DNA of 64,000 nt. It comes from Dictyostelium discoideum (lineage: Eukaryota). How positions within the stretch are numbered: position 1 is the stretch's first letter; every line of letters starts with the position of its first letter. The notes below the pieces were generated by a model that saw only the letters and a program-made list of their open reading frames with translations, was not told the origin of the DNA and made no database searches. Location: the NCBI GenBank assembly GCA_000004695.1, contig CM000154.2, positions 5,061,353 to 5,125,352 on the forward strand, written 5' to 3'. Shown here one piece after another: positions 59,417-62,401 of the stretch. Made by a program: the position numbers and the translations under genes.

Positions 59417-62401
59417 ATGAAAATGACTATATCAAACTCAGATACTGATGAGCTTACATCTGCATCAGAGTCTTCAACATCTGCATCTTTATCTTCAACT
59501 GTAAACTCTTCTTTTTCTACCAGTATTTCTAGTAATTTAAATTCTTCAAATAATTCAAATGGATTAGTAAATAGTCAAAATATTTATAATAATAATAATA
59601 ATAATAATAATAATAATAATAATAATAATAATAATAATAATAATAATAATAATAATAATAATAATAATAATAATAATAATAATAATAATAATAATAATAA
59701 TAATAATAATAATAATAATAATATACCAGTTATAACAACCACCACTACAACAACAACAACAACCACAAAAATAAATACCAATTTAATTTCAAATATAAAT
59801 TTAACGCCTTTCCAAAATAAACAAACACCACCTCCATCACCAAGATCAATACAAGGTCCAACGATATCACCAAGGACATTATCAATTATAAATAATAATA
59901 TCAATAATAATAATAATAATAATAATAATAATAGTAATAATAATAACAATAATAATAATAATAATAATAATAATAATAATAATAATAATAATAATAATAA
60001 TAATAATAATAATAATAATAATAATAATAATAAAAGAAATAGTGGAGGTAGTAATTTAAGTACAAATAATAGCGCAAGTAATAGTAAAAGGAATAGTAAA
60101 AATTCTACATCAATGATGATGATGATGAATGAAGAAGATTATATAGATTTTAATATAAATTTAACAAATAAATTTAAGAATGAATTGAATGGTGGAACTA
60201 GTAGTGGAAGATCATCATACAGTGAGGAGGATGATGATAGATCAAGTAATTATGATGGAGGTTGTGGCTCAACTACATCAAAATCCAATAGATCATCGAT
60301 AGGACATAGCGAAACATTGTTAGGAATATCAAGAAGTGATAGTAGTAGTAGTAGTGGTGGTTTCAATAGTAGATCGAGTACAATTGATGGTGAAAATCAA
60401 GCACTAACCAATTCAAATTCAGTATTATTAAGAGTTAAATTTCCAGAATCACATCAAATCATCACGAAAATCCTAAGATTACCATTAGCATCGACAATTA
60501 AAGAATGCCTCTATAGAATTCATCAAATGGTAGGATTGGATAATTATAAACAATGTTCAATTTGTTATAATCAATCAACGCTTTCGCCAACTACATTGTT
60601 ATCAACATTGTTTAGTGGTGATGATTCAGTGGTACCAACAATTGAAATTAAAGTGACCAGTGGTAGTAATAAATCATCACCTCGTCCAATTTTAGCTCAC
60701 ACTTCATCTGTACAGTCATTGATTCAAGGTGTTTCAATTAAAAAGAAAGCATTATCCAATGGTCAATCACCAAAGGATACAATGTTATTTCAACCACCAC
60801 ATCCATCCTATACAAAAGATTTGGATGGTTTATTTTGGGCAACTTCTCCTAATCATCCAAATAAATCAATTCCCTGTCTCTATCATAAATGGAAGAGTAG
60901 AGATGGTAAATTCGATTCAAAGTTAACCATACTCTATAGTGGTGGAAATTTGGAAGATATTGGTCTTACCAGAAAATATATGAAAATACTTTCAAACATA
61001 CTACAAGTTAATATATTTTGTTATGATTCCACTGGTTATGGTTTAAATGCTGGTAAACCTTCATTAAAAGAATCTTTAGAAGATATTTTTATCATTTTTA
61101 ATTATTTAACAAATTCTTTAAAAATCAATTCCAAAAATATAATTTTGTAAGTTTTTTTTTTCTTCTTCTTCTTCTTCTTCTTCTTCTTCTTCTTCTTCTT
61201 CTTCTTCTTCTTCTTCTTCTTCTTCTTCTTCTTCTTCTTTCAATAGTCGAATAATAATTTAAATCTCCACTTCAACTAATAACATAAGATTATAACTTAC
61301 ACATTACTTAAATTAATTAAAAATAATTTTAAATATTAATTTTTTTTTTTTTTTTTTTTTTTTTTTTTTTTTTTTTTTTTTTTTTAAAAAAATTTTAGAA
61401 TGGGTAAATCAATTGGTACAATTTCAACATTAAAATTTGCGAGTGAATTATTTCCAAAAGTTTTAAAAGCAAATAGTAGTGGTAAATCATCAACAGCATC
61501 ACCCATTGAATCATGTAAACAGTATAAATCTGTGGGAGGTATTATATTATTAAATTCATTTGGACCTGGTGGTGTTAGTGATAACATTGTAAATGTATTA
61601 TTATCGTTAGATGCCTTTGATCATCTAAAGAGAGTTGAGAGGATAACATGTCCCGTCCTATTGATTCACTCTGAGGATGATCAAATTGTAAATGTAAAAT
61701 GCTCAAAGAAATTAGCAAAACTTTTCAATAACCTACATAAATTCACCATGGTAAAAGAGGCTGGCCATTGGAATTTAGAGACTCATTATTTGGACGATTA
61801 TGAAGATGATTTGATAGAATTTGTCAAACTGGTCTCACCTGAGCAATTCGCCAATAGAAAAGAAAGAGATGAACCACCAAGTTATTCAATGTCTCCAAAT
61901 AAAATCGTCGGTAGTTGGTTGGATCGATTAGAATTATCTCAATACACTCAAAACTTTTTACAATTTGGTTATTTCGATATGGTTTCAATTTCAACTCTAG
62001 ACGATGTTTCCCTTTTGGAAATGATTGGAATCACTGATCAAAATCATATCTCAATCTTTACAAAAGAAATTCAAAAAATAACAAACTCTCTATACGGTAG
62101 TATGGTTAGTACATGTACAAACATTAGTAATGGTAGTAGTGGTATCAATTCAAGTACAAGTGGTAGTTCCCCAAGTTCTACAACTCCTTCAACTAGAAAT
62201 TCTGCAAATTTAGATGATTTCACTACTACTACTTCTACTACTAATAATAATAATAATAATAATAATAATAATAATAATAATAATAATAATAATAATAATA
62301 ATAATAATTGTGGTGATTTGATTACTGCAACTATCAACCAAACAAATTGTTGTTCTTTGGATAATTGTAATAATACTTCAACAACATCTAATAATAATTA
62401 A
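59417..62401 (+). CDS. Alpha/beta-hydrolase (ABHD17/FAM108-like serine hydrolase) with a C-terminal SAM domain and a long N/T-rich low-complexity N-terminal region, ~910 aa. Exons join(59417..61146,61399..62401).
   Basis: The exon junction reconstitutes the nucleophile elbow KNIIL|MGKSIGT (GxSxG with Ser in GKSIG). Further hydrolase motifs are ...ITCPVLLIHSEDDQIVNV (acid) and EAGHWNLE (His). A SAM domain follows at IVGSWLDRLELSQYTQNFLQFGYFDMVSISTLDDVSLLEMIGITDQNHISIFTKEIQKI. The 252-bp intron contains (CTT)26. (AAT)n-encoded poly-N tracts sit at 59587-59720 and 59890-60030. Confidence 0.7.
61162..61239 (+). repeat. (CTT)26 microsatellite inside the intron of the hydrolase-SAM gene, followed by a 60-nt T-run before the acceptor.
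   Basis: cttcttctt... from 61162 to 61239, then T60 at 61327-61386, then ttttag|A at 61397-98. This is the only pyrimidine-pure non-A/T triplet array in the window. Confidence 0.9.

Follow-up and report, generated by a model that had tools for sequence, protein, structure and literature searches.

In mammals, N-Ras and PSD-95 are depalmitoylated at the plasma membrane mainly by ABHD17 enzymes, which, to our knowledge, have been described only as small, lipid-anchored proteins with a single domain. The mammalian members ABHD17A, ABHD17B and ABHD17C (FAM108) are stand-alone proteins of about 300 amino acids (aa), and the stand-alone ABHD17-like proteins of protists, which are assigned to MEROPS family S09X in organisms such as Phytophthora, are of similar build. 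SAM domains of the type discussed below are found in Eph receptors, ANKS1A/B, Caskin and SHIP2, that is, in receptor kinases or scaffolds, and in none of these proteins is the SAM domain joined to an α/β-hydrolase. Membrane targeting of ABHD17 enzymes is accomplished by a palmitoylated N-terminal Cys cluster, which is required for function, and ABHD17A depends on both the palmitoylated N-terminus and the active-site Ser (PMC4755737). Here, we describe a gene of the social amoeba Dictyostelium discoideum in which an ABHD17-like hydrolase and a SAM domain are combined in one protein. The gene is located at positions 59417-62401 on the forward strand of a stretch of 64,000 nucleotides (nt) of contig CM000154.2 (positions 5,061,353 to 5,125,352), referred to as the window throughout, and all coordinates given without further specification are those of the window.

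The fusion of the two domains is real, conserved and uncharacterised, and its family shows a pattern that leads from enzymes to pseudoenzymes; it does not amount to a new type of system. A first-pass annotation of the window, which was made by a model from the DNA letters, had presented the architecture as undescribed; it is not confined to this gene and defines a family in many amoebozoan sources, whose members are deposited as 'SAM domain-containing protein' or as hypothetical proteins. Literature searches on ABHD17 or depalmitoylases in Dictyostelium, on ABHD17 combined with a SAM domain and on serine-hydrolase profiling in Dictyostelium returned nothing about this protein, and neither an ABHD17-SAM protein nor ABHD17 in Dictyostelium was described in them. 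Taken as a whole, the observations are probably best explained by a dictyostelid hydrolase-SAM gene, which encodes a likely active esterase/thioesterase and contains an old intron with bystander repeats.

A Two-Exon Gene Encoding a Hydrolase and a SAM Domain

Direct reading and translation of the region show that 59417-62401 (+) holds one protein-coding gene with two exons and a spliced product of 910 aa. Within this protein, a low-complexity N-terminus is followed by a dictyostelid-specific domain of around 85 aa, the hydrolase, the SAM domain and a low-complexity tail. Exon 1 (59417..61146, 1730 nt, phase 2) begins with the first ATG of its open reading frame (ORF) at 59417 and encodes residues 1-576 and two bases of the codon for Leu577. 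The sole intron (61147..61398, 252 nt, phase 2) has the borders GTAAGT...TTTTAG, and exon 2 (61399..62401; ORF 61400..62401) extends from the last base of the Leu577 codon to residue 910 and the stop codon TAA at 62399-62401, thereby carrying the nucleophile, the catalytic acid, the catalytic His, the SAM domain and the tail. The Leu577 codon straddles the junction (TT|A), and the intron parts the strand IIL from the nucleophile elbow. It had been proposed that the intron also splits the catalytic GxSxG motif; however, GKSIG (residues 579-583, 61403-61417) lies entirely within exon 2, the Ser581 codon begins 11 nt past the acceptor, and only the preceding Leu577 codon is divided.

The splice sites are consensus-like, and the donor TT|GTAAGT is also present in the orthologous loci. 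Without splicing, the reading frame stops immediately at the donor (..IIL*, TTG TAA), and retention of the intron would yield a product that ends before Ser581. In alignments, the orthologues read uninterrupted across the junction (..NIILMGKSIGT..), and the intron is present at the identical position and in the same phase in three other dictyostelid genomes, which supports the 61146/61399 junction of the first-pass annotation. The catalytic Asp, the catalytic His and the SAM domain are encoded around 40 residues apart in a single unbroken exon, and the fusion is therefore independent of any splice prediction. Together with transcript ORFs from other organisms that carry both domains, this bears out the earlier view that hydrolase and SAM domain form a single gene product. 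Sequence comparison indicates that the locus is a real two-exon gene of a dictyostelid social amoeba.

The Hydrolase and SAM Domains

The ABHD17-like α/β-hydrolase domain comprises residues 456-727 (60782..61849, interrupted by the intron) and is recognised by the Pfam model Hydrolase_4 with 30.5 bits, above the gathering cut-off of 27. It shares with mammalian ABHD17A/B/C the FxPPxPxY lead-in, the YDYxGYG motif, the GxSIGT elbow, the HGxxDxxV acid motif and the AGHN-type His. The motifs IIL-MGKSIG, SEDDQIV and GHWN, already picked out in the first-pass annotation, correspond to the nucleophile Ser581 (codon 61409..61411, in GKSIG), the acid Asp671 (61679..61681, in HSEDDQIV) and the base His700 (61766..61768, in AGHWN). 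All three fall into invariant S/D/H columns in an alignment of 22 relatives and in another of 123 sequences; Asp671 and His700 occupy columns D216 and H245 of the family alignment, and the nucleophile column contains Ser in 89 of 89 stand-alone relatives.

A direct phmmer search revealed that the stand-alone matches closest to the hydrolase are proteins of 240-330 aa. These ABHD17-like/S09X proteins share the triad and 27-34% identity over the whole hydrolase; unlike the window protein, they lack a SAM domain, mostly start with MG and largely retain an HGN motif. A profile built from stand-alone relatives retrieves entries named 'abhydrolase domain-containing protein 17' or 'serine protease family S09X' with E values of about 1e-73 to 1e-80; the former name is given by JGI to the stand-alone matches P0043 and P0114, and the latter to matches from Phytophthora and Plasmopara. 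In a BLASTP comparison with human ABHD17B (E 2e-22), the catalytic Ser, Asp and His are aligned and the identity is 27% over 221 aa; PDB searches with the hydrolase fold returned generic α/β-hydrolases only. At the level of the family, the ABHD17-like identity that had been suggested is thus supported by the nearest stand-alone relatives and the names given by their sources, and the label 'ABHD17-like' seems fair for a hydrolase of the ABHD17/S09X lineage in a comparison that covered proteins of this lineage.

As judged from its predicted features, the window protein is not a canonical ABHD17, since three characteristics of the family fail. The HGN motif, which we take to be the oxyanion-hole motif in the loop after strand 3, has lost its His: where the family has S-H-G-N, the window protein reads SGGN, with GGN at residues 509-511 (60941..60949). 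The second missing feature is the N-terminal anchor; neither a Cys cluster nor an MG start for N-terminal lipidation is found in the window protein, which begins MKMTISNSDTDE and has a Cys cluster only at its C-terminus. Lastly, the protein differs from the single-domain family of around 300 aa by its length of 910 aa and its two further domains.

The SAM domain (residues 743-806, 61895..62086) begins around 15 residues past the hydrolase. It is identified by Pfam, by sequence matches in PDB and by an AlphaFold2 (AF2) model that was built from the 123-sequence alignment. SAM_1 (31.0 bits, cut-off 23) and SAM_2 (30.6 bits, cut-off 20.5) both score above threshold, so that the Pfam check called for by the first-pass annotation turned out positive for hydrolase and SAM domain alike. 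The best PDB matches are the SAM domains of ANKS1A/EphA6, Caskin and SHIP2, and across the Eph receptor, ANKS1A/B, Caskin and SHIP2 proteins the E values range from 5.9e-8 to 1e-3. In the AF2 model, the SAM region forms a five-helix bundle (query residues 418-484) with a predicted local distance difference test (pLDDT) score of about 96, in agreement with the well-formed SAM domain that had been described.

Hydrolase-SAM Proteins in Amoebae

The distribution of the fusion was determined by a HMMER scan of 1.84 billion representatives, which gave 4290 matches; the family counts reported here were taken from the best 150 representatives at 50% identity. In 32 of these 150, a SAM domain follows 12-20 residues after the hydrolase. 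Many of the fusions are ORFs of Trinity or MMETSP transcripts, i.e., single mRNAs, and an intronless contig of 1898 nt encodes both hydrolase and SAM domain. The named sources amount to 14 taxa and include, in addition to dictyostelids, Thecamoeba, Planoprotostelium, Soliformovum, Filamoeba, Nematostelium, Cavostelium, Dracoamoeba, Clydonella, Mastigella, Pelomyxa and Vannella; we take all 14 to be amoebozoan, Vannella being the one whose lineage was checked by a tool. A survey of Amoebozoa for the same fusion, which had been advised earlier, thus found it widely represented, and the hydrolase-SAM cassette is, by these sequence matches, conserved over many amoebozoan sources.

The closest homologues of the window protein are dictyostelid proteins with the same order of hydrolase and SAM domain. 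Most non-dictyostelid fusions start with MG, 12 of 23 match the myristoylation consensus MGxxxS, and their hydrolase begins at about residue 8, whereas the dictyostelid fusions, including the window protein, possess a long N-terminal extension in place of the MG(xxxS) start. Several relatives continue after the SAM domain with a TKL-type kinase, sometimes followed by a BTB domain, with a PP2C phosphatase or with a coiled coil. The hydrolase-SAM-kinase(-BTB) and hydrolase-SAM-PP2C proteins of Thecamoeba, Dracoamoeba, Clydonella, Vannella and Planoprotostelium share with the window protein the cassette, the spacing of 12-20 residues and the loss of HGN; however, their cassette is located at the extreme N-terminus behind MG and precedes a catalytic signalling domain, their nucleophile is often lost, and the dictyostelid N-terminal domain is missing. 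In a neighbour-joining tree calculated from the hydrolase columns alone, all 30 alignable fusions, the window protein among them, fall into one bipartition (bootstrap 27/60; dictyostelids 60/60), which suggests that the fusion likely arose once.

The N-Terminal Domain and the Low-Complexity Regions

The first-pass annotation described around 500 aa of N/T/S-rich low complexity in front of the hydrolase. This holds true for residues 1 to about 330 (59417..60406), which contain 121 Asn among 330 residues, poly-Asn tracts and a poly-Thr run, and which include an AAT array at 59586-60033 detected by Tandem Repeats Finder (TRF). It does not hold for residues 336-420 (60422..60676, VLLRVKFPESH...PTIEIKV), a conserved, folded-looking domain of around 85 aa that occurs in dictyostelids only. 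In alignments, it is 40-69% identical among dictyostelids; phmmer finds it in dictyostelid homologues only, and it is missing from the other hydrolase-SAM fusions. AF2 predicts the order strand-strand-helix-strand-short helix-strand with pLDDT values of 61-75. A ubiquitin-like beta-grasp has its elements in this order, and the model possibly provides a lead in this direction. Searches with residues 336-420 gave nothing credible in Pfam (E up to 10) or in a PDB profile search, and hhalign comparisons were not significant with ubiquitin (probability 0.16%) or with the Ras-binding domains (RBDs) of Raf (E 0.066, probability 0.8%).

Several short elements lie outside the folded domains. Within the low-complexity N-terminus, the motif EEDYIDFNINLTNKF (residues 239-253, 60131-60175) is 79% conserved in D. 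purpureum (locus L001, 5053-5109) and may be a linear interaction motif. A linker with the pattern RPxLxHSSSVQxLL (residues 423-435, 60683-60721) is conserved in all dictyostelid orthologues, where it connects the N-terminal domain to the hydrolase; a short helix is predicted here with low confidence. In the C-terminal tail, the motif RNSANLD (residues 843-849, 62195..62215) is identical in the D. purpureum protein P0003 and in P0001, and is thus shared by three species. The tail also contains the Cys cluster NCCSLDNC (residues 893-900, 62345..62368), and Cys-rich tails are likewise found in the orthologues P0003 (CNYCTLDEC), P0001 (SCSCS) and P0006 of Cavenderia fasciculata (CECEFECIC). This cluster might serve as a site of acylation or of metal binding and stand in for the absent N-terminal anchor.

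The Intron and Its Repeats

TRF confirmed the CTT array that had been reported for the intron: a CTT/TTC microsatellite of 26.7 perfect copies (100% matches) is located at 61160..61239 (+) and begins 14 nt after the donor. The accompanying T run, given as T60 in the first-pass annotation, is a T46 homopolymer (61340..61385, +) close to the intron's 3' end. Both repeats are present; their share was overestimated, since array and T run make up 126 of the 252 nt, about half of the intron rather than most of it. Dozens of microsatellites are found in the window, among which this is the only TTC-type array at such a score; as the window is rich in microsatellites, a long trinucleotide array is ordinary here.

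The intron is found at the identical position and in the same phase in D. purpureum (78 nt), C. fasciculata (79 nt) and Acytostelium subglobosum (72 nt), and the CTT array is absent from all three of these orthologous introns. The shared position and phase across dictyostelid loci imply that the intron is old. The (CTT)26 array and the T46 run, by comparison, are a species-specific expansion that made the intron about threefold longer; judged from the aligned loci, they are bystanders with no sign of function. The CTT array was also considered as a conserved functional element and was rejected because it is missing from the three orthologous introns.

Proposed Role and Alternative Explanations

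Most likely, the protein would be a serine esterase or thioesterase that is still active, if possibly weakened, and acts on an acylated protein or lipid. Its location or assembly would be set by the SAM domain, through self-association or through binding of a second SAM protein, and also by the N-terminal domain, a job for which other amoebae would use an N-terminal myristoyl anchor. A number of points weigh against this reading. The His of HGN is lost and the nucleophile is often lost in the group, so that catalysis is not to be assumed; the ABHD17 assignment is derived from sequence similarity and from the names that sources use, and PDB holds no ABHD17 structure; the bootstrap for monophyly of the fusions is only moderate; and an exact look-up of the 910-aa sequence found no match in the protein collection. 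With regard to the first point, backbone amides make up the oxyanion hole, and loss of the His side chain therefore need not abolish activity.

The extent of catalytic erosion in the family could also mean that the hydrolase is non-catalytic and instead binds, for instance, an acyl chain or a partner protein, while the SAM domain assembles complexes. HGN is kept in 82 of 89 stand-alone relatives, but in only one of 29 alignable SAM-fused members, and it is GGN here. The nucleophile, which none of the 89 stand-alone relatives has lost, is present in 13 of 28 fusion representatives and replaced by Gly, Asp, Asn, Ala, Tyr, Thr or Cys in the other 15. Ser is absent from four of the five kinase-fused members (P0015, P0016, P0018 and P0036) and retained in P0007. 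These losses indicate relaxed catalytic constraint on the SAM-fused lineage, many of whose members are predicted pseudoenzymes. The triad Ser581/Asp671/His700, however, is intact in the window protein and in all dictyostelid orthologues whose models are intact, as well as in the closest non-dictyostelid relatives (P0005, P0007, P0008, P0010 and P0012-P0014), and we regard a non-catalytic role of this particular protein as the main alternative, possible though less likely. An annotation artefact, with hydrolase and SAM domain on separate genes or transcripts or with an intron that is not real, would be in line with the absence of the exact spliced protein from the protein collection. It is nevertheless highly improbable: Asp, His and SAM domain share one continuous ORF, both domains occur on orthologous transcript-derived ORFs and on the intronless 1898-nt contig, IILMGKSIGT is contiguous in orthologues, the intron has the same position and phase in three genomes, and the frame ends at the donor unless it is spliced. 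A separate gene for the SAM region was rejected on account of the shared ORF and the transcript ORFs with both domains. There is also little reason to expect that the lengths of the CTT26 and T46 repeats tune splicing just before the nucleophile codon and hence the dose of active enzyme. The array is located 14 nt past the donor, retention would truncate the protein before Ser581, and the intron is about three times as long as its counterparts; yet the array is missing at the same site in D. purpureum, C. fasciculata and A. subglobosum, similar microsatellites occur throughout the window, and the splice sites are consensus-like. An effect of repeat length on splicing, as brought up in the first-pass annotation, is thus unsupported, given the orthologous introns of 72-79 nt without the array, and appears very unlikely.

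A further-reaching proposal, which we consider improbable, is that the hydrolase-SAM cassette represents an undescribed signalling module of Amoebozoa. It would combine a lipid-anchored, ABHD17-derived domain for acyl binding or deacylation with a SAM oligomeriser on kinases, phosphatases and BTB proteins, and in dictyostelids the anchor would have been replaced by a beta-grasp domain of the Ras-binding type, resulting in a Ras-recruited (pseudo-)deacylase. If this were true, the mammalian connection between ABHD17 and Ras would be tied to direct physical coupling.

Returning to the reading of a likely active dictyostelid hydrolase-SAM protein, its family is of interest because an amoebozoan lineage joins an ABHD17-type domain to a SAM domain, often together with kinases or phosphatases, and repeatedly loses catalytic residues, thereby providing a natural series from enzyme to pseudoenzyme. 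As this series exists in organisms in which gene knock-outs are routine, it can be tested directly whether a tethered ABHD17-type domain serves catalysis, acyl binding or scaffolding. No special significance is attached to the repeat-rich intron.

The best stand-alone match, P0032 (JGI, 279 aa), has an intact HGN motif, the elbow GRSLGSGP and an Asn/Thr-rich N-terminus that looks dictyostelid, which suggests that such organisms keep a conventional ABHD17-like paralogue beside the SAM-fused one.

Dictyostelid Orthologues and Neighbouring Genes

The orthologues are DICPUDRAFT_98999 of D. purpureum, DFA_12045 of C. fasciculata (UniRef100_F4QFH4) and SAMD00019534_118830 of A. subglobosum. Like the window protein, the dictyostelid orthologues consist of N-terminal domain, hydrolase and SAM domain and are 48-75% identical in the conserved part; the position and phase of the intron and a tail-to-tail UQ_con neighbour are shared as well. 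Unlike the window gene, they have introns of 72-79 nt without the CTT array and other low-complexity regions. Their entries are unnamed or bear only the name 'SAM domain-containing protein', and several of the models are truncated or mis-spliced. Some alignment gaps are located at informative sites: P0002 lacks LMGKSIGTIST right at the conserved intron, P0001 lacks LYHKW..YSG, and P0004 lacks the strand that contains the acid. These gaps are probably mis-predicted splice sites and not real losses. In D. purpureum (GL871213.1; L001, ~5900-6010), three successive +1 frame shifts within around 110 nt are needed for the reading TILYSSGNLEDIG / LTRKHMKIL..CYDITG / FGLNGG, and because of them the deposited model is cut to 382 aa. 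They are either assembly errors or the mark of a damaged gene.

Directly downstream of the window gene, in tail-to-tail orientation, lies a gene for a ubiquitin-conjugating enzyme (UQ_con) with a poly-Asn tail (62573-63620, -). The same adjacency is found in all four loci, with the UQ_con gene at 7883-8562 in D. purpureum (L001), at 6235-7146 in C. fasciculata (L003) and at 5450-6371 in A. subglobosum (L004), and it looks like unusually deep microsynteny for dictyostelids. Scans of the window for tRNA genes and Rfam families found nothing. The upstream neighbour (55573-57052, +) encodes a multi-pass membrane protein whose N-terminus is poly-Asn and which also contains a long poly-Leu run; its match to GOST_TM is weak and below the cut-off (E 7e-4). 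In D. purpureum, the upstream gene is instead annotated as a tetraspanin.

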